This document shows, piece after piece, positions 9,945-26,575 of a stretch of DNA of 64,000 bases. Within the stretch, counting starts at the first letter, position 1, and each line of letters starts with the position of its first letter. The notes beneath the pieces are model-generated. The model was given only the letters and a program-made list of their open reading frames with translations, was not told the origin of the DNA and ran no database searches. The translations under genes were made by a program, and so were the position numbers. This DNA is from a virus, in IMG/VR virus record IMGVR_UViG_3300036791_001038, positions 1-64,000 of that record, one strand, 5' to 3'.

Positions 9945-10709
9945 TCAGGTGACCGGGGCGGTCCAGGTGGTGGCCCAGGTCTGAGGTCCCACCTTTCCAT
10001 CCACTGTCAGGTGTTTTTCTGTCTGGAACTGCCTACAGATGCTTTCTGAGTCATTTCCGTATATCTGATCCACGGCGATGTTCCAGCCCCTACTCCGCAT
10101 CTTGTTCTGCCAGGTCCGCACATCGGCGTGGGTGTGGTTGTGGCCGAAGGCCGGGCCGAAGTAGTCCACATGCAGCGGTGGCACCACCGAGGGCTTGTTG
10201 GGGACGGGCGGAGGCGGAGCCGGAGGCGCGCCGCCGATGGAGTTCAGGATGGTCTGGCGGCGGTTCTTCCGCAGGTCGCCGGGGCAACTGGTGTGGCCAC
10301 CCCACCCTGAGCCGCCCATGCCGTGCCAGCCAAAGCCGGGCTGGCCGGGAGCCTCACTGAGGACCTTGGCCCACTTGTAGGTGCCGATACCCCACTGGTA
10401 CAGGCGGGCCAGCATGGCCTCCTGAGCGGCCGTGAGGGGCTCGCTGGGTATCCCCTCGGTCTCGACCGAGTTGTAGGTACTGTTCCCACCCGACTGCGCC
10501 CAGGCGCAAAGGTTGGAATCCACGTACTGCTCCAGCACCCCGGTCTTGGACACCCACCAGGTGGAGGAGGCATCCGCGGTGGGGTTGTTGAACCAGCCCG
10601 ACAGGCCGCCGTTGCCGACTTGGACGTGCAGGACCAGGCCCAGATGCGAGCCCATAGCTCCACCGTGATTGCGGACGGGCTTCCATACCGCGAAGGGACA
10701 GACGGTCAT
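9945..10709 (-). CDS. endolysin: N-acetylmuramoyl-L-alanine amidase plus PG-binding domain
   Basis: LVLH, S.TWW.S.TG..EQYV, AW.Q, VETEG, GWH, CPG; Pro linker; C-terminal D.IYG..S...CRQFQ...L.VDG.VGPQTW. Confidence 0.9.
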   Translation of the reverse strand: MTVCPFAVWKPVRNHGGAMGSHLGLVLHVQVGNGGLSGWFNNPTADASSTWWVSKTGVLEQYVDSNLCAWAQSGGNSTYNSVETEGIPSEPLTAAQEAMLARLYQWGIGTYKWAKVLSEAPGQPGFGWHGMGGSGWGGHTSCPGDLRKNRRQTILNSIGGAPPAPPPPVPNKPSVVPPLHVDYFGPAFGHNHTHADVRTWQNKMRSRGWNIAVDQIYGNDSESICRQFQTEKHLTVDGKVGPQTWATTWTAPVT

Positions 10710-10828
10710 GCTTCCTCCACCGGGGGCTGGTCGGGATGGGTCTCTTCGGGCACCTCGGGCTCGTCGGGATGCTCACCGGCAGGCTCATCGCCGCCGTGAT
10801 CGTCCTGGGATGGGGCGGTGTCGGTCAT
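10706..10828 (-). CDS. 40-aa acidic microprotein
   Basis: MTDTAPSQDD...VEEA*. ATGA overlaps at both ends, AAGGAGAGG RBS. Confidence 0.6.
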   Translation of the reverse strand: MTDTAPSQDDHGGDEPAGEHPDEPEVPEETHPDQPPVEEA

Positions 10829-11064
10829 GCCTCTCCTTCGGGTGCAGGCTCGGTTACTGGGGCTGGCTCGGGTCCTGCCGGGGTGGGCTCGGCTGTCTCC
10901 TCGGCTCCGGCGTCGATCCCGTACACCGGTTCGGCGGTGGCCGCAGGGCCGGGGTTCTCCACCGGTCGGGCTCCGGGGGGCTGCGTCGAGGGATCTATGG
11001 GCGGGGCTTCGGTCTCCGCTACGTCGCTGGGATCGTCTGGGGGTGCTGGATCGGTATCAGTCAT
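10825..11064 (-). CDS. 79-aa acidic Pro-rich protein
   Basis: MTDTDPAPP...EGEA*, coupled to the next ORF. Confidence 0.6.
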   Translation of the reverse strand: MTDTDPAPPDDPSDVAETEAPPIDPSTQPPGARPVENPGPAATAEPVYGIDAGAEETAEPTPAGPEPAPVTEPAPEGEA

Positions 11065-11098
11065 GGGGTTATCTTGGTGCTTTGGCTGGAGGTTCGCA

Positions 11099-11287
11099 AT
11101 GACCAAATGGCTTATTCGCGATGAAGGCACCGGCACTGTGGATGTGCTGAAGGATCGCAAGAGCTTTGCTTATGACCTTGATGATGTGGATGAGGCTGTC
11201 GCTCATATCAAGCATCATCGATACTATGACAAGGAGGATAAGATCGAGGTGGTCGAGCCCGACGGCTATCGCCATCGCCTGTCCTGA
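11099..11287 (+). CDS. small hypothetical protein
   Basis: GGAGG RBS. MTKWLIRDEG... Confidence 0.7.
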   Translation: MTKWLIRDEGTGTVDVLKDRKSFAYDLDDVDEAVAHIKHHRYYDKEDKIEVVEPDGYRHRLS

Positions 11288-11313
11288 ACCGAGCCAGAGC
11301 CTCGAAGGGGTGA
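11278..11313 (+). promoter_or_regulatory. putative late promoter motif copy 1
   Basis: CCTGTC-N20-GAAGGGGTGA. Confidence 0.7.
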
Positions 11314-11322
11314 GGTGACCCC

Positions 11323-14300
11323 GTGATCAAGTACGCCAGCCTGGAGATCCTCTCCTCCGAGTACGGCGGCGACGGCCCCATCCGCCGTCAGGCCCATCGC
11401 GCCGACTTCGCCTACGACCCCCGACCCGGCTTTCTCTACGTCCGGTCGCGGGCCATCTCCTCGCGAGTCAACGACAACTACGACGGGTTCCCTGCCGAGG
11501 AGATCGAGAAGGGTTACAAGTCCTTCATCGGCAAGCCTGTGTTCGTAAATCACGTCAATGACGACCACCGCCGGGCCAGGGGAGTGGTCATCGCGGCGGC
11601 TCTGCACCACGATGTCAATCCTAATGGTACGCCTGATACCTGGTGTGAAGTACTGATGGAAGTCGATGCTCATCGCTTCCCTAAGCTGGCTCAAGCTATT
11701 GTCCAGGGTCATATTGACAAGACATCGATGGGTGTAGACGTTGAGTATTCCATATGTTCAGCCTGTGGTAATAAGGCTACATCTCCTGCTGAATACTGTC
11801 GTCATATCCCACAACTCAAGGGCAGCAAGATTGTCAGGAGGAATGCAAAGACCGGTAGACCAGAGGAGACTTTGATCTATGAGACGTGCTATGGATTGAG
11901 TTTCTTCGAGAATAGTCTGCTCGTAGAAGATCCCGCCGATCCGACAGCATTTTTCCTTGGAGTTGACAAGCGTGGATTAGATATGAGTCCACACCACGCC
12001 TCGAAGGATCTGGTCGATCAAGCTCCAGGAGACGCCATAGTACATGGCCAGTTCAGCCCTGGTCAAAGAACTGGTTCGAATCTCGCGAACTTCGTCCTCG
12101 GTGAGCTTGGCGCGCCCATGCCAGATACCTCTGGATTGGCGGTCACGGGCGATCTTGTCGGCCATGTTGTCGATGTGGGTACCGACCACCCAGTGGGCGG
12201 GATTCTGGCAAGGCGGGTTGTCGCAGGTATGGCGGACGAACAGCCCATCTGGGATCGGGCCGACCAACTGTTCGTAACCGAAGCGATGGGCATAGGTCGA
12301 GCGACCGTTGACTCGGAGAGCGCCATATCCCTTGTTGGTGCAGCCCCAGGTCCAGGGCCAGCAGGCGTCAGGACCGCCGGAGCGATCAATCCTGGAGAGG
12401 TACCGCTCCATGTCGCCCACGATGACCAGCTTAAACGGTCTGGCCTGGGAGCCTTCGTGGCCAGTTCAGATGAAGAAGGCCCCCGCACCGGCCAGTTCGG
12501 GGACGATCATGCCCTGGTCAATGTCCACCAGGTCAAGTCGCGGCCCAACACCTACTACCTGCACAACCTGTGGGTGAACCCTGATCACCGCGATAAGGGC
12601 ATCGGCTCTCGTCTGATGAAGAGCATCACCGACGAGCATGATGCCAACGGCTCCACGCTGGCCTTGCACACTGATCAGCCTCGATTACAGGAATGGTACA
12701 AAGGCATGGGATTCGAGCCCAAGGAGCGTGATGTCTTCGGCCAGGTGATGGAGCGTCCACCGAGGACGGCTGGACTCAGAGCCTTCGTGGCCGCCAGTTC
12801 AGATGAAGACGACGACCTGTCCACCAAAAGCCCGGCCGAGATCGACGCCCGCCTGGGCGATCACCATACGAAGCTGTATGGCCACCAGGGTCGCCAGGCG
12901 TCGGCCCTGGAGCAGATGCACCACGCCGTGGGGGATCGCCAACAGGGCCGGGGCCAGGGCAAGTTCTGGCAGAAGTCCCACCAGGAGGTCCTCAACCACG
13001 ATCCCTCCACCCTCACCAACCCTCGCCTGGCCCGCGACTACGCCCGCAACCGGACGGCCTATGACTCGGCCGGGGAGGACGCCAAGACCGAGCAGGGCCA
13101 CATCAGCCGCTATGACAACGAGTTCCACAAGCGGGGTGGCTGGTCGAGGTTTTTTCTGGTCCCCGATGGACATATCCACTCCTCGATGCAATGCCACTCC
13201 TGTCGGCCCACCACTCCCTTTAGCTGGTTGCCCAACCTGTCCGGCAAGTCTGAGGGCGAGGCCGTTGAGCAGCACGGCCCGCACCTCTGCACCCATTGCT
13301 TCAAGTCCGCTCCCACCGAGTGGAAGCGGGATCCGGCCGAGACGCGCGCCGAGGAGAAGAAGAAGTCGGGTGAGTATTGCGAGGGCGGCAAGGCCAGCAG
13401 CTACCCCGACGCCGAGGAGCGCGCCCGGCGCAAGGCCACCCATCCGCAAGGCAAGGTCAAGCTAGAGCCCGGCGAGGCCATGTACACCGGCCAGCGGGGT
13501 GGCTACCAGGGCCGTTGCCCCACCTGCAAGACCATCCAAAAGGTCAAGAACTCCGGCGAGTTCTACCAGCACAAGCCGCCCGAGGTACCCAAGGAGGAGA
13601 AGCCCAAGGTCGAGCGGCCGGTGCTACCTGATCCTGGTAAGGGGCTCAAGACCCATCTGCGGCAGAAGCATCAGATGAATACCCATGATTTCGACTCGTA
13701 CCAGCAGTATCAACCGGATAAATCGCTGGATCAGATCCATAGTGATCTGCATGAGAAATACGATAACAATCAGCATGCACCGAACAATCACACCCATGGT
13801 GGGTCTGCGCCGCCTGCCACCACGGTCATGACCCCGCCCAGGGAAGGCTCCAGGAGGGGCCTAAGAGCCTTTGTAGGGGCTGATGCCTCGGGGATAACGG
13901 TGGCCGGTCTCGCGGTGGTGGCCCGCGACACCGGCCGGGTGCTGATGCTGCAGCGCCTGCTCGATGGTAAGGATCCGGCCGGGGGTACCTGGGAATGGCC
14001 AGGCGGTCATATCGGTCAGGACGAATCACCTATCGAGGGAGCCATCCGCGAGTGGAAGGAAGAAGTCGGTCAGCATCTCCCTGAGGGCCATGTAGGGGGC
14101 TCCTGGGACTCCAAGGGGATGTATCAGGGATTCGTGTACGTCATCCCCTCTGAGGACGACATCGAGGTCTACAGCGGCAAGCGACCGGTCACCAATCCCG
14201 ATGATCCCAAGGGCGACAATCCCGAAGCCGTGGCCTGGTGGGATCCCAAGGACCTGCCCGACATGCCCGCTCTGCGCCCTGAGTGCAAGACCACCGACTG

Positions 14301-17300
14301 GTCGCTGTTCAAGCCCGCTGCTATTGCGAAGGTGGCCGTCGAGGAGAAGCCCTCAGAGCCCTGGTATCACAGCGCCGACGACTATGAGGGCGCAGTAGGT
14401 GACCGTACTCATATCACCCGTAATGTGCAGATGGATCTACCCACCCATCTGGTCGCTCATATGCCCGGTGTGATGGATGAGCGTCCTGGCGAACACCGTA
14501 ACATGCAAGGTGATAAGTGGGAGGACTTCAAGAATGACATCTCTGCCAACGGCATCAAAAACCCGCTCTTTATCACGGTGGATCACGGCCAGCGACCCAG
14601 GCTGTCTGAGGGCAACCACCGCAGAGACGCGGCGATTGAGCTAGGCCTCAAGCACGTCCCGGCCCAGGTGCGCTACTACGGTCACGCCGAGCGGGACAGC
14701 GACCTGGAGGACCAGGCCCGCAAGTGGTGGACCCACAATCCCCAGCATCTGCCCAGAACCTCGGCTAGAGCGTCCAGGATCAAATGGGATCAGGTCGAAC
14801 AGGATTACGAACATTCAGGACCGAGTGATTACGGAGGTGCTTACTGGATAACCCCCTCCGGTAAGAACTTGAATGTCGGTGAATACCATTCCAATCTCTT
14901 CAAACATCCGGCCGTTGGTTACAATCCGAATGCTAAGCCGGAGTATGCCGATGAGGATTCCCGTCATGTGCTGGCTCAGGGTGGGGTGCGGATCATGCAT
15001 CTGCCCAACTCCGCCTATGGCAATCGCATAGCCGTCGAGCATCACCATCCTCTCACCGAGGGCCAACAGAAGACCCTGATCAGCTTCGTGCATCGCTCCC
15101 ATCCTGATTCCCTGGACTATGACGGCCCGAATGGCTATCGGCAGTTCGACTTTCCCACTGGGGCCGATGTCCGTAAGCATCTGTCCAAAGAGGCCGCCTA
15201 CGACCTCCTCGGTCCAGGCAAAGGCCACTACTTCGAGCCGGTGGAGGAGGGCAGCGACTGGTGCGCCGTCTGCGGTCACGATCGCCGGGTGACCAAGCAT
15301 CCCCTGCCCAAGCAAGCGGCCGCCGAGCGTCAATATCTCTATCACACTTCTCCCGTTCATAATCGAGCGAGTATTACCGAGAAGGGTCTGCTTCCTAATC
15401 AACCAGGTCATGAAGACGAACCTGAGCTTCCTAAGGGAGTCTATCTTGACTCTGATGAAAAGATGGCTCTCGATACCGGTAATGATTATGGAGAAGATGT
15501 ATGGAAGGTGGATGTCACTGGATTAAAACATCATGTTGATCCTTATTGGGAGGGAGTTGCTCATCGACCTAATACCAGTCATTACGTCAAAGGAGCCATC
15601 CCACCTCATCGTGTGACTCTACACCGGCCTGCATCATGGCATGAATGCTCTGATAAGTCTTGTCACCTTGCAAGGATCGGGCTGCGGGCCTTTGTGGCGC
15701 TGGTGGTCCCCAAGACCTTCTTTCATGGCACCACTGAAGAACTGCAGCCTGGAGATGTCCTGCATCCCGGCAATGAGATGGGGCTGAAGACACACCCTCA
15801 ACTGCACAAGTGGCGGGGGGATCATGTCTGGGCCACCCCCGAGGAGGCCGGGGCCTGGGGCTACTCCGAGCAGGCCGAAACCAGCCGGGGCACCCACCAC
15901 GTTTATGGACCAACGGTCGGTGATCGCCCCCGGCCTCGGGTCTATGAGGTCGAGCCCATGGGACCGGTGCAGAAGCGCCGTCGTCTGAGTCCCTTCGACC
16001 CCGAAGAATACACCATGCCCTCGGCCAGGGTCCTGCGCTCCATCGACATCCCCCACCCCGAGGTGCCGTTACCCACTCAGGGCAAGCCCTCCGGTGGGGG
16101 TATGCAGGGTCGTCTCCCCGGCGAGAAGAGTTGGGAGAACTGGAAGACCCTGGAGCCCGACGCGGCCGATCTCTCCGAGCATTGGGAACTGTCCCGGCGT
16201 CGTCATCCAGAGGCCTGGGCGGCGGGTGATAAGGAAGAGCCAGCCCCAGAGACCGATGAGCATCAGCAGAAGCTCTTCGCGGCTCGAATGGCCGCGCTCC
16301 GGGCCTTCATAGCCGTCAACAGTTCAGATGAAGTACCGCCACCCATGGGGGAGTCGCCCATCCCCGAGGGCCATGTGCGGCTGTTCCACCAGACCTCGGT
16401 GAAGCAGGCCGAGTCGGTGCGCCAGCACGGGCTGACCATGGAGCATGCTCGCGATGTCAGCGGGCCACGCGGCGTCTGGGCCAGTCATGGCACCCGTTTC
16501 TACGGCGAAGGCGATGAGCATGCCACCGTGGAGTTCCACGTCCCTTACGACGAGCTACGCGACACGGCCGGAGGTCAGTCCCCGCATCGGCATCAGCCTC
16601 AGGAGGACTGGGAGAAGAGTACTCACCACACCCTGATTATCCCCCGCTCTATCAAGCCGCATGAGATCTCCGCTATCCATCTGCCCTGGCACAATCGTTA
16701 TCACTACTTCCATGACAACGGCATGACTGATGATGTGAAGAAGGGTGAGTACGACAACCTGTCCGACATGAAGGACTACGGCCCGGCCATCGACAAGATC
16801 AAGCACGAAGCTCTGCGTCATTTGGCCATGCAAGCCGAGGACGAGGTACCGCCCCGGCTCGGGACCGCGCCCATCCCCGAGGACCACGTCCGGCTCTACC
16901 ACCACACCTGGTCAAGGAACGTTCCCGGCATCCGGGAGCATGGCCTGCTGGCCGAGATGGGCCAGGGCGACAGCGGCAAGGGCTACGGCAACGAGGCATC
17001 AGCGGGGGTATGGGCCGCCAGTCAGCATCCCGAGCCTGATCCCCAGAGTGACCGGCATGTGATCGAGTTCCACGCCCATCCAAGAGAGATCGATGTCAAC
17101 GGCCCCTCTCCTGGCCAGGACATCCATAAATGGCAGCAGGGCGATCACAACGTCCTGATGCGGGGCAGTGTGCCGAAAGAGAACATCCTGGCTATTCACG
17201 CCCCTTGGCATACCGCTTATCATCAGATCTCCGAGGATGCCCGCGACCGGGAGGATGTGAAAGGCGGCAAGCTGGACTGGGTCCACAACGATCCCAGCAT

Positions 17301-20300
17301 GAAGGAGATCAGCAAGGCCGTCCACAAGATCCAGTCCGAAGCCAAGAAGACCCGCAACACCGAGAAGCCTCAGCAATGCAACTGGTGCAAGCAGCCCGCC
17401 ACCAAGTCCATGCTGTGGGCCGAGGGTATGGGGTACATCCCCACCTGTGACAAGCATGAGGCAAAGACCCGTGACCACATCGAGAACACCAATGATGACG
17501 AGGTCGTTGCCATCCACCAGATCAAGCAGGGAGCCAAGCAGCCCTATATCGGCAAGGGCTGGTGGCTGACGCCCGAGGGCAAGAAGATCGGGGTCTACGA
17601 CCACTACGAGACCACTCCGGGGATGGCCCGGCAGATGATTCGTCCTCACATGGCCGAGAGTGGTCAGGTCCGGGTCCGTAGCTTCAACAATCAACTCAAC
17701 GTGCAAACGTCGCGGCCGTTCACCGATGCTCAGCGCCAGAGCTTGCTGCTGGATGCCGATAAGCATTCCCGCATGTTCGTGGACGTGCTACACCCCGACA
17801 CCGAGGAGTCCATCCACTCCGAGTCCGGTGGCCCCGAGGACGCCGATCGCATGCTGGCCCGAGCCCACCGGGCCGCCATACCCCACACGGCCGCCCTGAC
17901 TCTCCTGGCCGATCAGCCCTACGCCGGAGGTCACACCTTCCAGTTCATCAAGGCCACCCCCAAGGTGATGGGTGGTAGCTCCCTGCACGAACTGCGGGCC
18001 TATCCCGAGGGCGAGTCCAAGCGCTACTCCGGGTCGCTGCGATGGTCATACAAGTCTGGTGAGATTGCCGGTATCGACGTGGACAAGGACCAGCAGCGTC
18101 AGGGCCTGGCCACCGAGCTACTGGGCCGGGCACGCGATATCGCCGCCACCACCCGAGGGGTGATCGCTCCCAAGCACTCCGATCAACGCACCAACGAGGG
18201 AGAGGCTTGGGCGCGCTCGACCGGCGATCGGCTGCCCCGGCGGCTCACCGGACTGGGGGTGTTCGTGGCCGCTTTTGGACAACCACAGCTATTCGATCCC
18301 GGTAGTGGTGGCCATGAGCATCTACCCAATCCTCGGGGTGGGCTGGACTGGCATCACGGCACTCCGCATCACTTCGAGAGCTTCGAGGAGGAGCGCCCGG
18401 AAGAAGACGATCCCTATGGCGGGTATGACTTCGAGACCGGCGAGAAGTTCAAGCAGCCCCATTGGAACACCCACCTGGGCCAGCACTGGACCTCCCTGCC
18501 GGGCGTGGCCGAGCATTTCGCCAAGGGCCAGTACGGTCAGTATGGGGAAGGCAAGGGTCATGTCATCACCGCTAACCTGGGCGTAAAGCACCCCAAGGAC
18601 TACAAGCTCGAATCCCACATGGACAAGGAGGCCTTCGAGCATGCCTGGGACGGGCATGATCCCCACGATTACCACGATGAGTTCTGCCATAACCCGGAGC
18701 ATCGAGACGACCCCGACGAGGAGCATTTCGATGACGAGCCCTACCACTACAACGACCAGCATGAGCGCGGCGACGAGGTGGACCGCCAGGTCCAGGCCCG
18801 CTACCGGGACCGGGAGCAGCAGGGCGAGTGGCTGAGCCAGCATCCCGACTCGGGCTCCCTGGCCGAGAGCTTCAAGGACAAGGTCCGCCAGGAGGGTCAT
18901 GACGGCATCACCTACGGCAACGAGCTAGAGGGGCCGCACGGCCACCAGTGCGCCATCACCTTCGATGAGCATCAGATCCACAACCCCCGCCGCCGGGCTC
19001 TGGGCAAGCTGGCGGTCGAGGACTACGACACCCTGTACCACATCACCGATCAGCACCACTTCGCCCTGGACCCTGAGCATGCCCCCCAGGACAACGCCTT
19101 CGCCATCCAGGACCGCTCCCACTACAAGGGCCTATACGCGACCAAAGACCCTGACACCTGGCGGGCGCAGGGCTACCACCGGCCTTACGTGGCCGAACTG
19201 CACGTCCCCCATGGGCTGGCCCAGCAGGAGCGCTGGCACGGGGAGAGCTTCATTCCGGCCGAGCATTTCGACAAGGTCAAGGTCAACCGGGTCATCCCCT
19301 TCGATGCTCATCAGCGTGAGAAGTGGGGTGAGCCCGGCACCATCGAGAGCTACCACGGCACCCACTACCAGACCAACCAGCCGCTCAAGAAGAAGCCGGG
19401 CTGGGAGTCATCGGACTACTACGAGGCGGATGAGAACGAGCCTGCAACCAAGGACGTGCGCGACTTCACCCCGAAGGAACACACCCGTCATCTCAAGCGG
19501 CTGCGCGAGTACCTGCACCACGTCCAGGGTTGGGGCTGGAACGAGTTCAACCAGAAGCATGAGCATGTCGGCATAGGCGAGGACGAACAAGACGAAGAGG
19601 GCATGCCCATCCGGCGGGACCAGAAGGGCCAGCCCATGACCCGAGATCGCTATGCAGCCAAGACCGGGCCGATCTACTACCACGGCCATGGCCGGGGAGG
19701 AGCCCGAGCCGCGACCGGCGATCCCGAGTGGGACGACAACCTCTTCGTCAGCCACGATCCCGAGGTGGCCAAGCTGTACGGCCCCAAGCTGGATCGCATC
19801 CAGATGGCCCCCGACACCAAGGTGGCCCGCCATGAACACTGGCTGGGCGCGCAGAGGCCTGACATTGCCCTCAATCTCCTGCGTAAGGCCAAGGCTAAGA
19901 ACGCCGATGTGATCGAGTTCCACAAGCCTCATGACTTCGTCGGTCACATCATCCTGAACAAGGACAAGATCGTCAGCCGGGAGCCCTATGATCCCGGTCA
20001 TACCGCCATGGCCGATCGAGGCGACTACGGCATGGAGCATTCCCCCCACCTGGAGGGACCGGCCTTGCACGAACTGGGGCACAGCTATCCCGACATCTAC
20101 GACCATCCCGAGTACTACGGCTCCATGCATGAACGGCCCGGCCGGGAGTCAGCCCGCGCCCTGAAGAGGGCCAAGGGCATCGGCCCCGACGACCAGGTCA
20201 GCATCTACCGGGCCGCTCCGCACGGGGTCACCACCTTCAACCACGGCGACTGGGTCACCCTCTCCCCCAGCTACGCCCAGCAGCACAGCCGCCACCCCAC

Positions 20301-21045
20301 CGACGAGAGCCGGGACATGCCCATCTACAAGGCCCAGGTGGCGGCCAAGCACGTCCACTGGGACGAGAACGACATCAACGAGTTCGGCTACTCCGGCCCC
20401 GAGGTACCCGCCACCAAGCACCTACCGGGTGGTCCTGACGCGCCGCGCCTGGCTGCCTTCGTGGCCGCCCTGGACCCCGGCCAGGTCTCCGAGGCATCCC
20501 CGGAGGAGTTCCATCGCCGCTTCTCCGAGGCTATGGAGGGCAGCCCCTTCGTCCACCATGTGACCAACCACACTCCCGAGGAGATCCGCTCGGGCGGCAT
20601 GCGCCCGCTCACCACCAACGGTGGCGACACCGGGGTGCTGGTGCATGACCACGGCGACGGCCGTATCGAGGCCACCGGCCTGTACAACCGCTCCAAGGTC
20701 AAGGGCGCGGGGGTCGATCTGCTCAAGCATACCATGGAGCATCATGGCGTGAACTACGTCGAAGCGTATGGACCTAGACTTCCCCAGTTGTACCGACGAG
20801 CAGGCTTCCAGACCACCGAGAAATATCGCTTCGATCGTGAGCAGGCTAACCCTGGCTGGGATTTTCGCCAGTTCGATTCGCCTAGCTATCACATCATGCA
20901 CCCACGTAACACTCAGAAGTCTGGTAAGGTGATCTCATGGCCTTCGACCGCCAGCGTTCCATTCCTGTTCCCATCAACGAGCCTGAGCCCTCCGAGGGGG
21001 CTATCAGCCTTTGGGATGTTGACTGGGACGACCCCGAGCAGGTAG
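11323..21045 (+). CDS. prohead protease fused to a polyvalent multi-effector polyprotein (GNAT x3, NUDIX, ParB-like, ART-like x~8, Zn modules)
   Basis: N-term F.GKPVFVNH...TSMG..V.YSICS.CG...YC.H...FFENS protease-like domain, positioned before scaffold and capsid genes. NUDIX box GGHIGQDESPIEGAIREWKEEVG. ParB EGNHR. GNAT V.PDHRDKGIGSRL. Multiple YH-x-T/HGT ART-like starts. Confidence 0.85.
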   Translation: MIKYASLEILSSEYGGDGPIRRQAHRADFAYDPRPGFLYVRSRAISSRVNDNYDGFPAEEIEKGYKSFIGKPVFVNHVNDDHRRARGVVIAAALHHDVNPNGTPDTWCEVLMEVDAHRFPKLAQAIVQGHIDKTSMGVDVEYSICSACGNKATSPAEYCRHIPQLKGSKIVRRNAKTGRPEETLIYETCYGLSFFENSLLVEDPADPTAFFLGVDKRGLDMSPHHASKDLVDQAPGDAIVHGQFSPGQRTGSNLANFVLGELGAPMPDTSGLAVTGDLVGHVVDVGTDHPVGGILARRVVAGMADEQPIWDRADQLFVTEAMGIGRATVDSESAISLVGAAPGPGPAGVRTAGAINPGEVPLHVAHDDQLKRSGLGAFVASSDEEGPRTGQFGDDHALVNVHQVKSRPNTYYLHNLWVNPDHRDKGIGSRLMKSITDEHDANGSTLALHTDQPRLQEWYKGMGFEPKERDVFGQVMERPPRTAGLRAFVAASSDEDDDLSTKSPAEIDARLGDHHTKLYGHQGRQASALEQMHHAVGDRQQGRGQGKFWQKSHQEVLNHDPSTLTNPRLARDYARNRTAYDSAGEDAKTEQGHISRYDNEFHKRGGWSRFFLVPDGHIHSSMQCHSCRPTTPFSWLPNLSGKSEGEAVEQHGPHLCTHCFKSAPTEWKRDPAETRAEEKKKSGEYCEGGKASSYPDAEERARRKATHPQGKVKLEPGEAMYTGQRGGYQGRCPTCKTIQKVKNSGEFYQHKPPEVPKEEKPKVERPVLPDPGKGLKTHLRQKHQMNTHDFDSYQQYQPDKSLDQIHSDLHEKYDNNQHAPNNHTHGGSAPPATTVMTPPREGSRRGLRAFVGADASGITVAGLAVVARDTGRVLMLQRLLDGKDPAGGTWEWPGGHIGQDESPIEGAIREWKEEVGQHLPEGHVGGSWDSKGMYQGFVYVIPSEDDIEVYSGKRPVTNPDDPKGDNPEAVAWWDPKDLPDMPALRPECKTTDWSLFKPAAIAKVAVEEKPSEPWYHSADDYEGAVGDRTHITRNVQMDLPTHLVAHMPGVMDERPGEHRNMQGDKWEDFKNDISANGIKNPLFITVDHGQRPRLSEGNHRRDAAIELGLKHVPAQVRYYGHAERDSDLEDQARKWWTHNPQHLPRTSARASRIKWDQVEQDYEHSGPSDYGGAYWITPSGKNLNVGEYHSNLFKHPAVGYNPNAKPEYADEDSRHVLAQGGVRIMHLPNSAYGNRIAVEHHHPLTEGQQKTLISFVHRSHPDSLDYDGPNGYRQFDFPTGADVRKHLSKEAAYDLLGPGKGHYFEPVEEGSDWCAVCGHDRRVTKHPLPKQAAAERQYLYHTSPVHNRASITEKGLLPNQPGHEDEPELPKGVYLDSDEKMALDTGNDYGEDVWKVDVTGLKHHVDPYWEGVAHRPNTSHYVKGAIPPHRVTLHRPASWHECSDKSCHLARIGLRAFVALVVPKTFFHGTTEELQPGDVLHPGNEMGLKTHPQLHKWRGDHVWATPEEAGAWGYSEQAETSRGTHHVYGPTVGDRPRPRVYEVEPMGPVQKRRRLSPFDPEEYTMPSARVLRSIDIPHPEVPLPTQGKPSGGGMQGRLPGEKSWENWKTLEPDAADLSEHWELSRRRHPEAWAAGDKEEPAPETDEHQQKLFAARMAALRAFIAVNSSDEVPPPMGESPIPEGHVRLFHQTSVKQAESVRQHGLTMEHARDVSGPRGVWASHGTRFYGEGDEHATVEFHVPYDELRDTAGGQSPHRHQPQEDWEKSTHHTLIIPRSIKPHEISAIHLPWHNRYHYFHDNGMTDDVKKGEYDNLSDMKDYGPAIDKIKHEALRHLAMQAEDEVPPRLGTAPIPEDHVRLYHHTWSRNVPGIREHGLLAEMGQGDSGKGYGNEASAGVWAASQHPEPDPQSDRHVIEFHAHPREIDVNGPSPGQDIHKWQQGDHNVLMRGSVPKENILAIHAPWHTAYHQISEDARDREDVKGGKLDWVHNDPSMKEISKAVHKIQSEAKKTRNTEKPQQCNWCKQPATKSMLWAEGMGYIPTCDKHEAKTRDHIENTNDDEVVAIHQIKQGAKQPYIGKGWWLTPEGKKIGVYDHYETTPGMARQMIRPHMAESGQVRVRSFNNQLNVQTSRPFTDAQRQSLLLDADKHSRMFVDVLHPDTEESIHSESGGPEDADRMLARAHRAAIPHTAALTLLADQPYAGGHTFQFIKATPKVMGGSSLHELRAYPEGESKRYSGSLRWSYKSGEIAGIDVDKDQQRQGLATELLGRARDIAATTRGVIAPKHSDQRTNEGEAWARSTGDRLPRRLTGLGVFVAAFGQPQLFDPGSGGHEHLPNPRGGLDWHHGTPHHFESFEEERPEEDDPYGGYDFETGEKFKQPHWNTHLGQHWTSLPGVAEHFAKGQYGQYGEGKGHVITANLGVKHPKDYKLESHMDKEAFEHAWDGHDPHDYHDEFCHNPEHRDDPDEEHFDDEPYHYNDQHERGDEVDRQVQARYRDREQQGEWLSQHPDSGSLAESFKDKVRQEGHDGITYGNELEGPHGHQCAITFDEHQIHNPRRRALGKLAVEDYDTLYHITDQHHFALDPEHAPQDNAFAIQDRSHYKGLYATKDPDTWRAQGYHRPYVAELHVPHGLAQQERWHGESFIPAEHFDKVKVNRVIPFDAHQREKWGEPGTIESYHGTHYQTNQPLKKKPGWESSDYYEADENEPATKDVRDFTPKEHTRHLKRLREYLHHVQGWGWNEFNQKHEHVGIGEDEQDEEGMPIRRDQKGQPMTRDRYAAKTGPIYYHGHGRGGARAATGDPEWDDNLFVSHDPEVAKLYGPKLDRIQMAPDTKVARHEHWLGAQRPDIALNLLRKAKAKNADVIEFHKPHDFVGHIILNKDKIVSREPYDPGHTAMADRGDYGMEHSPHLEGPALHELGHSYPDIYDHPEYYGSMHERPGRESARALKRAKGIGPDDQVSIYRAAPHGVTTFNHGDWVTLSPSYAQQHSRHPTDESRDMPIYKAQVAAKHVHWDENDINEFGYSGPEVPATKHLPGGPDAPRLAAFVAALDPGQVSEASPEEFHRRFSEAMEGSPFVHHVTNHTPEEIRSGGMRPLTTNGGDTGVLVHDHGDGRIEATGLYNRSKVKGAGVDLLKHTMEHHGVNYVEAYGPRLPQLYRRAGFQTTEKYRFDREQANPGWDFRQFDSPSYHIMHPRNTQKSGKVISWPSTASVPFLFPSTSLSPPRGLSAFGMLTGTTPSR
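11977..12420 (-). CDS. HNH homing endonuclease nested antisense in the giant ORF
   Basis: CWPWT...GYG...YAHRFGYE...VRHTCDNPPCQNPAH..VGT..DNM.D; C-terminal AKLTEDEVREIR HTH. TAAGCT -10 lies 7 nt upstream. Confidence 0.9.
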   Translation of the reverse strand: MGDMERYLSRIDRSGGPDACWPWTWGCTNKGYGALRVNGRSTYAHRFGYEQLVGPIPDGLFVRHTCDNPPCQNPAHWVVGTHIDNMADKIARDRQSRGIWHGRAKLTEDEVREIRTSSLTRAELAMYYGVSWSLIDQILRGVVWTHI

Positions 21046-21176
21046 CCGCGCTCAAGGCCCAGACCGAAGCCGAGCTTGAGGCCGAGAACCCCGAGGATTG
21101 GGCCGCCATGACGCCCGAGCAGAGGGAGAACTCCTGGAAGGCGGCCCTCGCTCAACTCGGCGTACACGGCGTCTGA
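20937..21176 (+). CDS. small acidic protein overlapping the polyprotein 3' end
   Basis: AAGGTG RBS, coherent acidic helical sequence. Ends just before late-motif copy 2. Confidence 0.6.
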   Translation: MAFDRQRSIPVPINEPEPSEGAISLWDVDWDDPEQVAALKAQTEAELEAENPEDWAAMTPEQRENSWKAALAQLGVHGV

Positions 21177-21177
21177 G

Positions 21178-21213
21178 CCTGTCGGGCGCTCCCTGAGCGC
21201 GCCGAAGTGGTGA
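21178..21213 (+). promoter_or_regulatory. putative late promoter motif copy 2
   Basis: CCTGTC-N20-GAAGTGGTGA, followed by G then ATG. Confidence 0.7.
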
Positions 21214-21214
21214 G

Positions 21215-23449
21215 ATGTCTCTGGTCGCCACCGCCAAAGAGCAGACCACGGTGCCGCCCGAGGTGGACACCATGCGGGAGGAGATCTGCCCGGTCTGCGG
21301 CTCGGACGACTCCTACGTGGGTGACAAATGCTCGGTGTGCGGCTTCGAGAAGCCCCCGTCGCTGTTCATGGACCCCGACACCTCCCTGGCCCAGAACGTC
21401 AACCTGCGCCAGCAGGACCAGGAGGACGCCAACGACGACGGGGCCGGGGATCTGCAGTGCCCCGAGTGCGGGGAGACCTTCTCCTCGGCCGAGGCCCTGA
21501 ACCAGGCCGGGGACCCCCACCTGGCCCCGGCCGCCCAGACCATCCCGGCCGAGCAGGACCTGGTCGCTCCCGAGGAGGGCTCAGAAGAGCCGGAGGGGCC
21601 GCTGGAAGCCCCCGAGGACGAGGATGAGAACCAGATGGCCCCAGGCCCGCCTGAGGACGCCATGGGCGTTCCTGGGCAGCCTGAGCCCCCCGAGGAGGAC
21701 CAGGAGGAGGAGCTACCACCGGGTCAGCCCGAGGACCAGGACGAGGTAGCTCCCGGCCAGGAGGGACCAGAGCCGCCCGAGGGGGAGCTTGACGGCGAGG
21801 AGATCCCCGAGGGGGCCGAGGAGGAAGAGGAGCCTGAGCAGGCCGAGCAGGAACAGGTCGATCCCGAGGCCATGGCCGAGCAGCAGTATGCCGCCGATCA
21901 GCAGGGCATGGCCGACACCGGCTACGAGGAGGGCGACATCTGCCCCAACTGCGGTCAAGGCATCCTGCAGGAAGTCGGCCCGGAAGGCCCCATCGTCCCG
22001 CCCGAGACCAGCAGCCCGCGCACCGCCCCTGACTCCGGTGACCAGGGCCAGTCACCCTTCCCGGTCAGCGACGAGGACGAAGAGGATGAGGGTGACCAGG
22101 AAGAGGCACCCGGCGCAGACGAGGCCGAGGAGTCCGGCGGTCAGTCCGACATAGCCCCCGAAGACCAAGACGACGGGGATGAGGACCAGGAGCCAGACGA
22201 TGAGGACGGGGACGAGGATGAGGACGAGGATGGCATCCCTCCCTGGGTGAAGAAGAAGACAAGTTCACATGAACTACCAGCCATAGGAAGGAGCCCCAGT
22301 ACCATGGCCAACCGCACCCGCACCAACGGTCGCGTCACGCCCCGACAGCCCCAAACCACCACCCGCACCGCCAACACCGCTCAGCCCGAGCCCACGCCCC
22401 GGACCTCGGTGCGGACGGCCCTGCACGCCTCGCTCAACCAGCAGGCCCATGTGCTGCGCCAGATGACCGCGGCCTGCCAGCAGGAGCGCATCCTGCGCCT
22501 GGCGGCCGAGGCCCGCATCACCACCTTGGAGCGCCAGATGCTGCGCTTCGCCCAACTGGCCGGGGCCGATCACGATGCCGAGCTTCGCTCCCTCAACGAG
22601 GAGGGCTACCGGACCCACACCGCCCTCATGGCCCGTGCCGCCTCCCTGCATGACACCACTCGGCACATTGCCGACCAGCGCGACCCCGGTCAGCCCGTGC
22701 CCGAGCCCGCCCCGGCTCCTCCGGTGGTGACCGAGCAGGAGGCGGCCCAGCCCGCCGGGCGGGACGACGTGACCCAGCTTGGGGCCACTCCGGTGGCCGA
22801 CGTGTCCGCCGACGCCACCCTGGCCGTGGACGAGCCCTACGGCACGGCTGCCTTCGAGCCCCTCAACCTCAACCAGGTGGACGTGACCGCCCCGGTCCAG
22901 AACACCCAGGGCCATCTGCCCCCCGAGCAGACCATCATCCCCGTCGAGGTGCGCGTCGGTGACCCCGACGATCCCCAGCCCAGCTTCGGTTGGACCATCG
23001 ACGGTGGCAACCCCTCCGGTCAGACCGGGGGCTCGGTGGGCTCAGGGGCTCCCACGGGAGCCGGGCGCGGCGCACCAGGGGTCCAGCCCGGCACCACCGC
23101 GGCCCGCAACGACGGCCAGGTCTCCCTGGGAGCCCTGCGGCTGGCTCGGCTCCGCATGCAAGCTGGTATTGCCCCGGCCAACCAGGACGACCTGTCCATC
23201 GCCGCGGCCATCCAGGACAACCCGGCCCTGACCGTCGAGGCCATCAACACCGAGATCCGCACCCTGACCCAGGTGTTGTCGGCCCAGCCTCAGGCCCAAC
23301 AGCGCACCGCCGCCGCCAGCCGTCGCCTGGTCCCCCGTGCCGCGCCGGGGGCCGAGCCCATGCCCTCTCTGGCCCCGAGCGGGGAAGGCCCCATTCGATC
23401 CCACGCTTCTACCGGGCAAGTTACGGCAGATGAGATGCTCTTCGAATAG
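21215..23449 (+). CDS. head assembly/scaffolding protein (Zn ribbons, acidic region, coiled coil)
   Basis: CPVC..CSVC, CPEC, CPNC; D/E/P-rich middle; coiled coil. Lies between protease and capsid genes. Internal AAGGAG-ATG at 22304. Confidence 0.7.
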   Translation: MSLVATAKEQTTVPPEVDTMREEICPVCGSDDSYVGDKCSVCGFEKPPSLFMDPDTSLAQNVNLRQQDQEDANDDGAGDLQCPECGETFSSAEALNQAGDPHLAPAAQTIPAEQDLVAPEEGSEEPEGPLEAPEDEDENQMAPGPPEDAMGVPGQPEPPEEDQEEELPPGQPEDQDEVAPGQEGPEPPEGELDGEEIPEGAEEEEEPEQAEQEQVDPEAMAEQQYAADQQGMADTGYEEGDICPNCGQGILQEVGPEGPIVPPETSSPRTAPDSGDQGQSPFPVSDEDEEDEGDQEEAPGADEAEESGGQSDIAPEDQDDGDEDQEPDDEDGDEDEDEDGIPPWVKKKTSSHELPAIGRSPSTMANRTRTNGRVTPRQPQTTTRTANTAQPEPTPRTSVRTALHASLNQQAHVLRQMTAACQQERILRLAAEARITTLERQMLRFAQLAGADHDAELRSLNEEGYRTHTALMARAASLHDTTRHIADQRDPGQPVPEPAPAPPVVTEQEAAQPAGRDDVTQLGATPVADVSADATLAVDEPYGTAAFEPLNLNQVDVTAPVQNTQGHLPPEQTIIPVEVRVGDPDDPQPSFGWTIDGGNPSGQTGGSVGSGAPTGAGRGAPGVQPGTTAARNDGQVSLGALRLARLRMQAGIAPANQDDLSIAAAIQDNPALTVEAINTEIRTLTQVLSAQPQAQQRTAAASRRLVPRAAPGAEPMPSLAPSGEGPIRSHASTGQVTADEMLFE

Positions 23450-23767: not shown

Positions 23768-24403
23768 GTGATTCGTGTCCCCATCTCTCGGTCGTACATC
23801 AAGCGGACGATCCGGGTCAACTACGGCTGGACCCAGGCCACCCCCAAGAGTGGCTACCTCGATCCCGCTTGGAACCGCTCGGTGCCCATCTGGCCTGGCA
23901 TGGCCTTCATGAGGACCTCCGGCGCGTCTGGCTACACCAGCCCGTACCAGAGCTTCGGAGCCACCTCGGGTGGTCCCAACTACACCCTGCTCAACGCCAC
24001 CGGGGTACCGGCCGGGTTCGTGGGCAACTACATCGGCGGCGAGGGCATCGATGAGCTTCTCGACACCGGCCTGTCCGCCCTGGCCGTGTGGGTCCTCGAC
24101 CCCGACGCCGAGTTCGAGATCCTGGCCCCGGCCTTCGACGCCAACCTGGTCTGGACCGACCCCGGCAACGGCACCGACGCCCTGGTCTATGCCCGCACCT
24201 CCAATCTGGCGGGGGCGGTGGGCCTCAACGGTCTGGGTGGGGCCATCGCGGCAGGCTCCTACACCGGCACCTACGGCCTGCAGGGCCAACTGGTGACCAC
24301 GGCCGACGCCAACAAGTCCACCCAGCCGGTGGCCCGCCTGGTGGCCGTCAACTCCAACCTGTCCATCACCATCGGTGGCCTGGCCGTCCGCTCGGGCTTC
24401 TGA
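23768..24403 (+). CDS. capsid decoration/minor capsid protein
   Basis: AGGAGG RBS, very high GC3, directly upstream of the major capsid gene. Confidence 0.7.
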   Translation: MIRVPISRSYIKRTIRVNYGWTQATPKSGYLDPAWNRSVPIWPGMAFMRTSGASGYTSPYQSFGATSGGPNYTLLNATGVPAGFVGNYIGGEGIDELLDTGLSALAVWVLDPDAEFEILAPAFDANLVWTDPGNGTDALVYARTSNLAGAVGLNGLGGAIAAGSYTGTYGLQGQLVTTADANKSTQPVARLVAVNSNLSITIGGLAVRSGF

Positions 24404-24446: not shown

Positions 24447-25439
24447 ATGACTCTGGTTGCCAACGTTGCGGGGCTAGCTCCAAAGCGGGCCAAGAAGTCC
24501 GACGACTACGTCGCTGAGATCCTCAAGCGGCGCGGCGGGGATGGCAACGTCCCGTCGCTGACCCATGAGGCCAAGGTCCGCAAGCTCTCCCTGATCCTCC
24601 AGGACGAGGTCAACGGCATCCGCCGTCTGGGCGTGGGCATGGTCGGACCCATCCAGTTGAAGCTGCGCTACCAGGGCATCACCCGCAACGTGCTGATCGA
24701 GGACCCAGTCACCCCCGGCACCCCGGTCGAGTACGACGTGTGGGACGACCTGGGCCAGGCCTACCTCATGAGTGGCACCGAAGGCGAGGTCCGGGTCACC
24801 CCCTTCGAAGGCAAGCGCCTGCCCATCCGGTTCTGGCGTATCGCCTCCCGTCCGGCCATCCGCAAGGAGGACCTGTTCTACCTCCGCATCAACGCGGTGG
24901 AGCAGGCCCAGGACGAGACCAAGCAGGCCATCATGAAGCAGGAGGACTCCCGCCTCCTGGTCATCATCCAGGCCGCCCTCACCGACTACGCCTCCAGGCC
25001 CGACCATGTCGTCACCCCCAACCACACCGTCTACGAGGCCAGCGGCTACTTCACCCCGCAGTCCATGTACACCGCGGTGGCCCAGTCCGACATGCACGAA
25101 CTGCCAGCCGGGCGCATGCTGGTCAACCCCTTCGACTACCGGGACTTCTTCCGCTGGGACATCAACACCACCGGCTGGGCCTTCAAGGACCGCATTGTGG
25201 CCGGGGAGCAGATCCAGACCTTCGGGGAGTTCAACTTCCAGCGCTCCATCATGGTCCCCCAGGGCCAGATGTACCTGCTGCCCAACCCGGACTTCCTGGG
25301 CGTGTTCCCGGTGCTGTACTCGCTCGACGTGGAGGAGAACCACAACGTCGAGGCCTTCTGGAAGGGCTGGGTTTTCGATGAGATGGTCTCCATGGCCATC
25401 CTCAACCCCAGGGGCATCACCACCGTCCTCAAGGGCTAG
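24447..25439 (+). CDS. major capsid protein
   Basis: 330 aa, strongest codon bias, AAGGAG RBS. PIQLKLRYQGITRNVL..D and GWVFDE.VSMAILNPRG recall cluster-C-like HK97-fold capsids. Confidence 0.85.
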   Translation: MTLVANVAGLAPKRAKKSDDYVAEILKRRGGDGNVPSLTHEAKVRKLSLILQDEVNGIRRLGVGMVGPIQLKLRYQGITRNVLIEDPVTPGTPVEYDVWDDLGQAYLMSGTEGEVRVTPFEGKRLPIRFWRIASRPAIRKEDLFYLRINAVEQAQDETKQAIMKQEDSRLLVIIQAALTDYASRPDHVVTPNHTVYEASGYFTPQSMYTAVAQSDMHELPAGRMLVNPFDYRDFFRWDINTTGWAFKDRIVAGEQIQTFGEFNFQRSIMVPQGQMYLLPNPDFLGVFPVLYSLDVEENHNVEAFWKGWVFDEMVSMAILNPRGITTVLKG

Positions 25440-25721: not shown

Positions 25722-25956
25722 AGGGACCGCGATCGCCGCCGTACTCACCGGCACCGCTGCGGTCTTAACGGCTTGGGCGGCTGTCAAGCGAGCCAAATCC
25801 AAGGGGAACGAGGAGTGTGAGGAGAATCTGTCCTTAGCTCGAAAGGAAGCTGAGGCTAATGCCGCCGAGGTCCATCGGCTGAGAATGGCGCATCCAGAGG
25901 ACTATGAGGAGCCTGATCACAAAGAAGAAGTAGAAGATGAGAACAAGGACAAATAG
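25714..25956 (+). CDS. single-TM coiled-coil protein (lysis-cassette-like)
   Basis: N-terminal TM segment followed by a charged coil. Confidence 0.6.
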   Translation: MAEGTAIAAVLTGTAAVLTAWAAVKRAKSKGNEECEENLSLARKEAEANAAEVHRLRMAHPEDYEEPDHKEEVEDENKDK

Positions 25957-26575
25957 AGGAGCTATTACCTCGAATATGCTCTTGGGTTTGTCGGTCATCT
26001 TCATCGTCCTAGCGGTGGTATTCGGCTTGTTGACCGGGAGTGGGGCGTCAACAAAGAACGGACCACCGGGATCGACCGGGCCACCTGGATCGACCGGACC
26101 AGCAGGACCACCAGGCAGTCCCGGCAAGCAGGGACCTCAGGGGCCATCGGGGGCAACGGCCACCACCCTGATCACCGAGGGCGGGCGAGTGGTAACCGCC
26201 ACCGTCCCTGGCGCGACGGGATCTACTGGAGCAGCCGGATCAGCAGGTACGTCAGGAGGGACAGGAGCGACAGGAGCAACAGGAGCGACAGGATCGGGTG
26301 GAGCAACAGGTACAGCAGGAAATACTGGAGCCACCGGGGCACCAGGTGCCCAAGGCCTACCAGGCCCAGCGGGAGAGCGAGGGGCCACGGGCGCTCAGGG
26401 CTCACCTGGTCCATCCGGGTCTCATGGCGCGACAGGAGCTACCGGGCCGCCAGGGCCGCGAGGACCGCCCGGAGTGGCCGGTACGTTCGAGTGTCCGAGC
26501 GGCTCAAGGCTGGAGAAGATCACCTTAAATGGCAAAGGTGGGCAGACCACCCTCTGGGCTTGTGTGATCGGATGA
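25937..26575 (+). CDS. membrane-anchored collagen-like protein
   Basis: TM segment, G-X-Y repeats, C-terminal CP...C. Confidence 0.8.
   Translation: MRTRTNRGAITSNMLLGLSVIFIVLAVVFGLLTGSGASTKNGPPGSTGPPGSTGPAGPPGSPGKQGPQGPSGATATTLITEGGRVVTATVPGATGSTGAAGSAGTSGGTGATGATGATGSGGATGTAGNTGATGAPGAQGLPGPAGERGATGAQGSPGPSGSHGATGATGPPGPRGPPGVAGTFECPSGSRLEKITLNGKGGQTTLWACVIG

Follow-up and report, generated by a model that had tools for sequence, protein, structure and literature searches.

The window analysed here comprises the first 64,000 nucleotides (nt) of the viral record IMGVR_UViG_3300036791_001038, from a soil phage, and is part of a 77-kb record with an estimated completeness of ~54%. On its plus strand, a single open reading frame (ORF) at positions 11323-21045 encodes a polyprotein of 3240 amino acids (aa), in which a predicted prohead protease is followed by a long series of modules, several of them recognizable enzymes, separated at many junctions by a short repeated motif. 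Sequence comparison indicates that this ORF belongs to a family of protease-scaffold fusions carried by large phages related to actinobacteriophages, of which it is an enlarged form. In the clade of this phage, the cargo appears to have grown to ~3000 aa and the scaffold to be encoded now by a separate gene located directly downstream.

The ORF begins with a GTG codon preceded by a strong Shine-Dalgarno sequence 5 nt on its 5' side and ends with a stop codon at 21043-21045; its start agrees with the N termini of homologues. Such a length could result from a chimeric assembly or from the chance read-through of distinct genes where DNA is rich in GC: at ~62% GC, frames readily stay open over long distances, another gene is read in antisense by 155 codons of the ORF, and the 3' end of the ORF has been altered by a 56-nt insertion. 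However, an independent assembler gave, for the probable source run, a Logan contig of 12,251 nt that covers 10800-22480 with no difference, and the Pfam and PHROG matches fall in the polyprotein frame. A search with the first 230 residues retrieved 35 homologues of 1800-3310 aa from many samples, the largest being located on contigs of ~150-170 kb, and comparison with relatives reveals conservation at the protein level over the entire length. Scans of viral and metagenome contigs added 90 further loci. Altogether, the N-terminal protease domain is common to at least 85 distinct relatives, found on phage contigs of roughly 150 kb. The complete ORFs of these relatives, counted from the protease, range from 515 to 3116 aa with a continuous spread, so that the 3240-aa form lies near the upper end of a real family. 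An artefactual origin is thus hardly credible, and the single ORF that a previous examination of the same letters (hereafter the sequence-only reading) had placed in the head module stands, together with its start and its synteny.

The first ~218 residues had been proposed to be a prohead protease with its His in VNH and its Ser in TSMG. Residues 30-210 match phrog_2774 (E-value 2e-67) and phrog_18299 'head maturation protease' (E 6e-23), and His77 (VNH) and Ser135 (TSMG) are invariant among nine relatives. In an hhalign comparison, these two residues fall on H85 and S140 of T4 gp21, which we take to be the catalytic residues of gp21, although this alignment alone is weak (E 0.13). The domain, which also holds a C-x2-C...C-x-H insert, shares 46-50% identity with proteins of Bxz1-like mycobacteriophages and of Gordonia and Rhodococcus phages (tblastn) and ~30% identity (E 1e-9 to 1e-11) with proteins of jumbo phages (Erwinia, Burkholderia and Dickeya) that carry the annotation 'head maturation protease'. 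Foldseek returned only spurious TBP-like rows, because the model of the protease is poor. Owing to the PHROG scores, the annotated relatives in jumbo phages, the invariant residues and the synteny, the proposal is accepted: residues 1-218 are assigned to a divergent serine prohead protease of the T4-gp21/assemblin type (clan SH), with predicted proteolytic activity. This domain is N-terminal here and in all 85 relatives, and it is the only domain that they all share.

The ORF lies in a late/head-gene context, in the order polyprotein, scaffold-like ORF, homologue of gp94 of Mycobacterium phage Cali, major capsid protein. The N- and C-terminal parts of the 744-aa scaffold-like protein were found by tblastn inside the protease ORFs of nearly all relatives. 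Its zinc-ribbon part belongs to the same ORF as the protease in 61 of the 85 distinct relatives, with 51-2067 aa in between, and a conserved acidic-hydrophobic C-terminal tail is present in 40 of the 85 as well as in Cali gp93 and in gp13 of Gordonia phage Stormageddon. In the members with the largest cargo, including this phage, the scaffold is a separate gene; in the close relative L004, ~230 nt lie between the two genes, a stretch that contains several stops in the polyprotein frame. The pattern [RK][TQA]A[ASG] occurs at most 30 aa after the protease in 39 of 78 proteins (4.6% of background windows) and 15-65 aa before the tail in 28 of 40 (background 9%); in the 744-aa protein, it is present within QQRTAAAS, 47 aa from the C-terminal end. 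This protein also displays two or three C-x2-C zinc ribbons and a stretch of ~250 aa extremely rich in Glu, Asp and Pro, within which read contigs from three soil samples vary in length (~22091-22232).

The herpesvirus UL26 protein consists of an N-terminal serine protease, a scaffold and a short tail, and its release and maturation sites lie after the protease and before the tail, respectively. As judged from the alignments, the ground plan of the phage family (protease, optional cargo, scaffold-like region, tail) is that of UL26: the protease is of the His/Ser type, the C-terminal region resembles a scaffold with a short tail, and small-residue motifs ending in Ala, which are candidate cleavage sites, correspond in position to the release and maturation sites of UL26. 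The differences are that UL26 has a plain linker where the phage proteins carry enzyme cassettes, of up to ~2070 aa in fused relatives or ~3000 aa in the split form described here, and that protease and scaffold share one ORF in 61 of 85 relatives but not in this phage. As protease and scaffold are both internal parts of the procapsid, anything located between them in the fused relatives must be inside the procapsid. The sequence-only reading had viewed the protease itself as a packaging tag. The comparison bears out a fusion that would place a multi-enzyme cargo in the procapsid for cutting; it does not bear out a simple tag with the payload behind it, since the cargo of those 61 relatives lies between the protease and the scaffold-like region.

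The polyprotein was divided into ~19 modules by means of a repeated motif, G-L-x-A-F-V-A, and of BLAST breakpoints relative to homologues. The motif is present nine times, always at module junctions, some copies being degenerate. The scan pattern detects eight copies in the ORF versus 0.04 in shuffled sequences, the ninth being RLAAFVA at 20446-20466, and a slightly looser pattern has only two matches in the rest of the window, one in a 69-codon frame and the other on the minus strand in the frame of a 247-aa ORF (1081-1824). The copies coincide with the junctions set independently by the breakpoints. As their codons differ from copy to copy, the motif is conserved at the amino-acid level, and for the same reason its interpretation as a nucleotide repeat serving recombination was rejected. 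It is kept in the nearest relatives, absent from Cali gp92/gp93 and Stormageddon gp12/gp13, and replaced by other inter-module motifs in distant clades (SKTA, SLLQHFA, SLRR(T/Q)A and SLRTAA); in the SKTA clade, the first copy directly follows the protease domain. The type of motif thus follows the lineage of the protease, as cleavage sites would, which fits putative processing sites.

These data suggest the following scenario, which we consider fairly probable and of which we infer every step, from incorporation through cleavage (and the scissile bond itself) to retention and injection. The polyprotein would be built into the core of the procapsid together with the scaffold. Once activated in the procapsid, the protease would cut the short motifs between cassettes, G-L-x-A-F-V-A in this clade and probably also the looser K/R-x-A junctions. 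[quoted passage not shown]

Several points weigh against this scenario. The protease has no match in Pfam, NCBIfam or PDB sequence and profile searches. Protease (11323-21045) and scaffold part (21215-23449) are two ORFs in this phage, so that the topological argument applies directly to its relatives only and incorporation of the 3240-aa protein is deduced by homology. By a rough estimate, each protease copy would bring with it ~330 kDa of cargo, a considerable burden on a capsid. G-L-x-A-F-V-A is missing from about half of the module junctions, which show loose K/R/H-x-A patterns instead. Finally, the motif is absent from the scaffold-like protein and from the capsid protein and is unlike the family-wide [RK][TQA]A motif beside the protease and the tail, which means that it may not be the target of the protease.

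This last dissimilarity would also suit a protein that is not cut at all, i.e. one giant polyvalent protein, packaged or not, whose motif would be a hinge, a docking peptide or a capsid-targeting peptide. The motif is indeed hydrophobic, as exposed cleavage sites seldom are, and some polyvalent proteins are transferred at full length (PMC5512222). However, the motif occurs only at junctions and changes with the protease lineage, to the point of being the sequence directly after the protease domain in one clade. Moreover, the modules are fused to a protease, the known relatives of which cleave proteins inside the head, and modules exist as stand-alone proteins beginning at junctions. An uncut protein therefore appears unlikely.

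Another possibility is that the polyprotein enters the procapsid and is cut but that its cargo is not delivered, either because it is bulk core or scaffold that is degraded and expelled at maturation or because its site of action is the procapsid or the cell that produces the phage, with phage DNA or head proteins among the possible targets. Tailed phages and herpesviruses generally lose their scaffolds once these have been cleaved, the cargo is part of a protease-scaffold protein, and no module is universal in this cargo, the length of which ranges from ~50 to ~2070 aa. On the other hand, the modules are conserved enzyme folds with intact signatures (GNAT, NUDIX, ART-PolyVal and the fold of ADP-ribosyltransferases, ART) and not low-complexity filler; filler to be expelled would need no ART catalytic cores. 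The domain types are also the same as those of injected polyvalent proteins (PMC5512222). Such a fate of the cargo seems improbable, and cutting followed by injection remains the reading that we prefer.

A broader proposal can be put forward more tentatively. The whole family might be a modular platform for capsid delivery, in which any cassette placed between the prohead protease and the scaffold and flanked by the cleavage motif of the lineage would be co-assembled, freed and injected, the payloads being shuffled, duplicated and exchanged. The 3240-aa form would then load at least six to eight different ADP-ribosyltransferases, together with NUDIX, GNAT and ParB-like domains, in a fixed 1:1 ratio with the protease.

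The modules and neighbouring features are listed in the table below. They were compared with each other by hhalign, using profiles built from ~96 relatives. Several unrelated conflict-type enzymatic domains are found in one phage polypeptide, as in polyvalent proteins. The outline of a multi-enzyme cargo of ~18 domains drawn by the sequence-only reading is largely right, although several of its ART calls are only leads. The identity of the two GNATs (proposed at 12475-12770 and 17930) and of the NUDIX domain is solid from profile matches, through Pfam for the first GNAT and the NUDIX domain and through hhalign for the second GNAT. The ParB-like (14608), Arr-like (15715) and ART-PolyVal (18340) calls hold by transfer from homologues, their activities being predicted. 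ParB_N reaches 28.2 bits (cut-off 26.3) in a module of the relative P0007 that is 48% identical to aa 1016-1133. Arr-ms exceeds the Pfam cut-off in P0003 and P0007, aligned to the same module, the best PDB sequence match of which is 2hw2 (phmmer, E 0.3). ART-PolyVal (PF18760) passes in P0008 (32.6 versus 31.2 bits) and scores 28.1 bits in P0007, both domains aligning to aa 2317-2561.

Of the ART-type domains, at least three have support, four others are plausible and one lacks support. Besides the Arr-like and ART-PolyVal modules, an ART fold was found at aa 2895-3041, where an ART-like domain had been expected (20020). This is the most widespread cargo module of the family. It contains invariant Y-R, G-D-W-V and N-E-F-G-Y segments, its linker end has a low predicted local distance difference test score (pLDDT), and its profile has no sequence match in the PDB. 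The two W-x-TP-x-G modules are, by profile comparison, true paralogues, as are the two duplicated ART-like modules (16334 and 16845); for the latter, the duplication is confirmed and the ART identity is a lead, the nearest Atlas clusters of duplicate A being DarT/PARP, Tox-ART-HYD1 and Arr (scores of 0.89-0.91). The ART-like calls at 15330 and 19025 are likewise leads with scores below threshold; the first of these modules (15304-15678) aligns to the duplicated modules at hhalign 78-82%, over 33 columns. None of the leads (15304-15678, 16315-17322 and 19006-19659) is linked by hhalign to the Arr or ART-PolyVal modules, nor are the modules devoid of functional assignment. By contrast with these leads, the ART call at 19670 (aa 2780-2894) is unsupported, this module having only weak and unrelated matches, and the GNAT-like call for the last module (20480) is not borne out. 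A phmmer search of two large chunks against the PDB gave just Arr (E 0.3). Searches of viral contigs with single modules gave almost nothing, with a method that needs near-identical words. An alignment of three modules was discarded, as long rows were forced onto non-homologous modules.

Table. Features of the polyprotein ORF and of its surroundings in the window
Feature	Coordinates	Strand	Evidence
Prohead (capsid maturation) protease domain, predicted, aa 1-218	11323-11976	+	PHROG matches, invariant His77/Ser135, profile alignment to T4 gp21
Filler, aa 219-373, sense-frame reading across antisense HNH gene	11977-12441	+	missing in a relative with 95% identity
Antisense HNH_3 homing-endonuclease gene, 147 aa, intact	11977-12420	-	Pfam HNH_3 E 1.3e-8, above cut-off
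Linker motif 1, GLGAFVA	12442-12462	+	motif scan
GNAT acetyltransferase (a)	12463-12771	+	Pfam Acetyltransf_1 E 8.9e-15, Acetyltransf_7 E 1.3e-13; aa 403-466 above cut-off
Linker motif 2, GLRAFVA	12772-12792	+	motif scan
Cys/His-rich module, aa 491-845, no functional assignment	12793-13857	+	phrog_2433 E 3.9e-43, phrog_15500; six homologues among relatives
Linker motif 3, GLRAFVG	13858-13878	+	motif scan
NUDIX hydrolase, aa 863-980	13879-14367	+	Pfam NUDIX E 1.3e-14, above cut-off; phrog_1198
ParB N-terminal-like domain, aa 1016-1133	14368-14721	+	Pfam ParB_N 17.8 bits, below cut-off
W-x-TP-x-G module, copy a, no functional assignment	14722-15174	+	hhalign 94% to copy b
Small Cys-rich module	15175-15303	+	sequence
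ART-like module, lead only, aa 1328-1452	15304-15678	+	Pfam PARP E 0.062 (below cut-off)
Linker motif 4, GLRAFVA	15679-15699	+	motif scan
Arr (rifampin ADP-ribosyltransferase)-like module, diverged	15700-16293	+	Pfam Arr-ms E 0.0058, 17.2 bits, below cut-off
Linker motif 5, ALRAFIA	16294-16314	+	motif scan
ART-like module, duplicate A, lead, aa 1665-1829	16315-16809	+	hhalign 100% to duplicate B
Linker motif 6, degenerate, ALRHLAM	16810-16830	+	motif scan
ART-like module, duplicate B, lead, aa 1837-2000	16831-17322	+	hhalign to duplicate A
Cys-rich (zinc-finger-like) module	17323-17520	+	sequence, relatives
W-x-TP-x-G module, copy b, no functional assignment	17521-17889	+	hhalign 94% to copy a
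GNAT acetyltransferase (b), aa 2190-2309	17890-18249	+	hhalign 97% to GNAT a; Pfam Acetyltransf_1 reports two stretches
Linker motif 7, GLGVFVA	18250-18270	+	motif scan
ART-PolyVal-type ADP-ribosyltransferase, predicted, aa 2317-2561	18271-19005	+	alignment to P0008 and P0007 domains
ART-like module, weak lead, aa 2562-2781	19006-19659	+	nearest Atlas clusters all of ART clan, 0.88-0.90, recognition below threshold; ~20 homologues
Module without assignment, aa 2780-2894	19660-20004	+	only weak, unrelated profile matches
ART-fold domain, aa 2895-3041 (phrog_2579 C-terminal region)	20005-20445	+	fold level
Linker motif 8, RLAAFVA	20446-20466	+	ninth copy besides the eight scan-pattern copies
Last module, no functional assignment	20467-20997	+	phrog_2563 E 4.6e-5; hhalign to GNAT a just 13%
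79-aa ORF, -1 frame, own Shine-Dalgarno (AAGGTGA) and ATG supplied by insertion	20937-21176	+	comparison with L004
Linker motif 9, GLSAFGM, with 8-aa tail and stop codon	20998-21045	+	motif scan
744-aa scaffold-like protein	21215-23449	+	zinc ribbons, hyper-acidic region, helical region, QQRTAAAS site-like motif, tail ending ...EMLFE
Homologue of Cali gp94 and Stormageddon gp14 (phrog_2783), no functional assignment	23768-24403	+	PHROG, tblastn
Major capsid protein	24447-25439	+	phrog_2522 E 2e-93; 55-57% identity to Cali and Stormageddon capsid proteins

The cargo varies by cassette. After the homologous protease, relatives carry the same modules in other orders and subsets, and no cargo module is universal. 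The order of the NUDIX and ParB-N domains is reversed in P0004, and the module that ends this protein is internal in P0006. In related phages from two other soil metagenomes, whole modules are inserted, replaced or lost exactly at junctions (14337-14347, 14755-15185 and 15303-15697). In one of these relatives, exactly 15304-15696 is missing (position 15303 being joined to 15697) and the junction reads G-L-W-A-F, a version of its own; in another, 399 bases are added where NUDIX meets ParB-N. The module of aa 2780-2894 also exists as stand-alone proteins of 116-124 aa, the start of which is aligned with the junction. As to cargo of other clades, DUF7178 (PF23802), which is absent from this polyprotein, is frequent in P0010, P0011, P0013, P0022, P0026 and P0031 (E-values down to 1e-36); it is a candidate family of packaged effectors, without known function.

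The HNH_3 gene, whose codons are in register with those of the polyprotein, lies after the protease domain and before linker motif 1, and is lacking in a relative that is otherwise 95% identical. HNH homologues with ~37% identity are inserted antisense at the same site in four other lineages (L021, L034, L040 and L051), the sense frame being open in each; from codon usage, the chance of an open sense frame across such a gene is ~0.25 per gene. In P0008 and P0034, inteins (Intein_splicing, LAGLIDADG_3 and Hint domains) interrupt the protease domain after a conserved E-Y-C. Together, inteins and HNH gene mark the protease as a target for homing elements.

At its 3' end, the polyprotein differs from that of L004 by the 56-nt insertion, which precedes its last ~35 residues and shifts them out of the ancestral frame. 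The ancestral C-terminal peptide, i.e. the C terminus of the polyprotein in L004, is now carried by the 79-aa ORF, which shares ~33 of its last 44 residues with the C terminus of P0004.

T4 packages an ART and other proteins in its head, where they are trimmed by the prohead protease before injection; these cargo proteins are encoded by separate genes, each with a capsid-targeting sequence and an (L/I)-x-E site. The system described here has a gp21-like protease in common with T4 but differs in that the cargo is covalently joined to the protease and in that the candidate sites are not the same. The closest cultured counterparts, Cali gp93 (1286 aa) and Stormageddon gp13 (1089 aa), both annotated 'capsid maturation protease', share the N-terminal protease and the C-terminal tail, and their genes precede a gp94-like gene and then the capsid gene, as here. 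They differ by little recognizable cargo (only Phage_L5_gp82 in Cali gp93), a fused scaffold part and the absence of G-L-x-A-F-V-A.

Polyvalent proteins, defined with 2-15 domains (Iyer et al. 2017, PMC5512222), resemble this protein by their many conflict-type domains per polypeptide (ART, GNAT, NUDIX and ParB-like), their location among late/head genes, their predicted packaging in the head and injection, and a peptidase domain proposed to act as processor (PMC5512222, PMC9503650). When they include an assemblin-like peptidase, it is always C-terminal (PMC5512222), whereas the protease is N-terminal here and followed by ~19 modules. Other differences are the clade-specific repeated junction motif, the location of the cargo between protease and scaffold in relatives and the lack of a MuF or portal fusion. 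Beyond the two papers of Iyer et al., literature searches found no account of cargo inserted between an N-terminal prohead protease and a scaffold, of lineage-specific junction motifs or of arrays of such size.

If the proposed scenario is true, the packing of many early-acting enzymes would be accounted for by their location between protease and scaffold together with a short motif on their flanks, and this packaging rule is directly testable in cultured relatives infecting Mycobacterium and Gordonia. The layout would also link phage polyvalent proteins with the protease-scaffold logic of herpesviruses. The family would be a catalogue of candidates for injected effectors, with several ART-like families and unannotated modules, and its protease lineages, paired with distinct junction motifs, would offer material on the co-evolution of specificity and sites.

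Around the head module, tblastn with the Cali and Stormageddon portals found no portal in the 77-kb record, which is about half complete. An endolysin-like gene (Amidase_2 and PG_binding_1; 9945-10709) is found ~600 nt upstream of the protease start on the opposite strand, where a lysis gene would not usually be expected. The capsid gene is closely followed by 25937-26575 on the plus strand, which encodes a 212-aa collagen-like or tail-fibre-like protein that may be the counterpart of the 'head fiber protein' of Cali.

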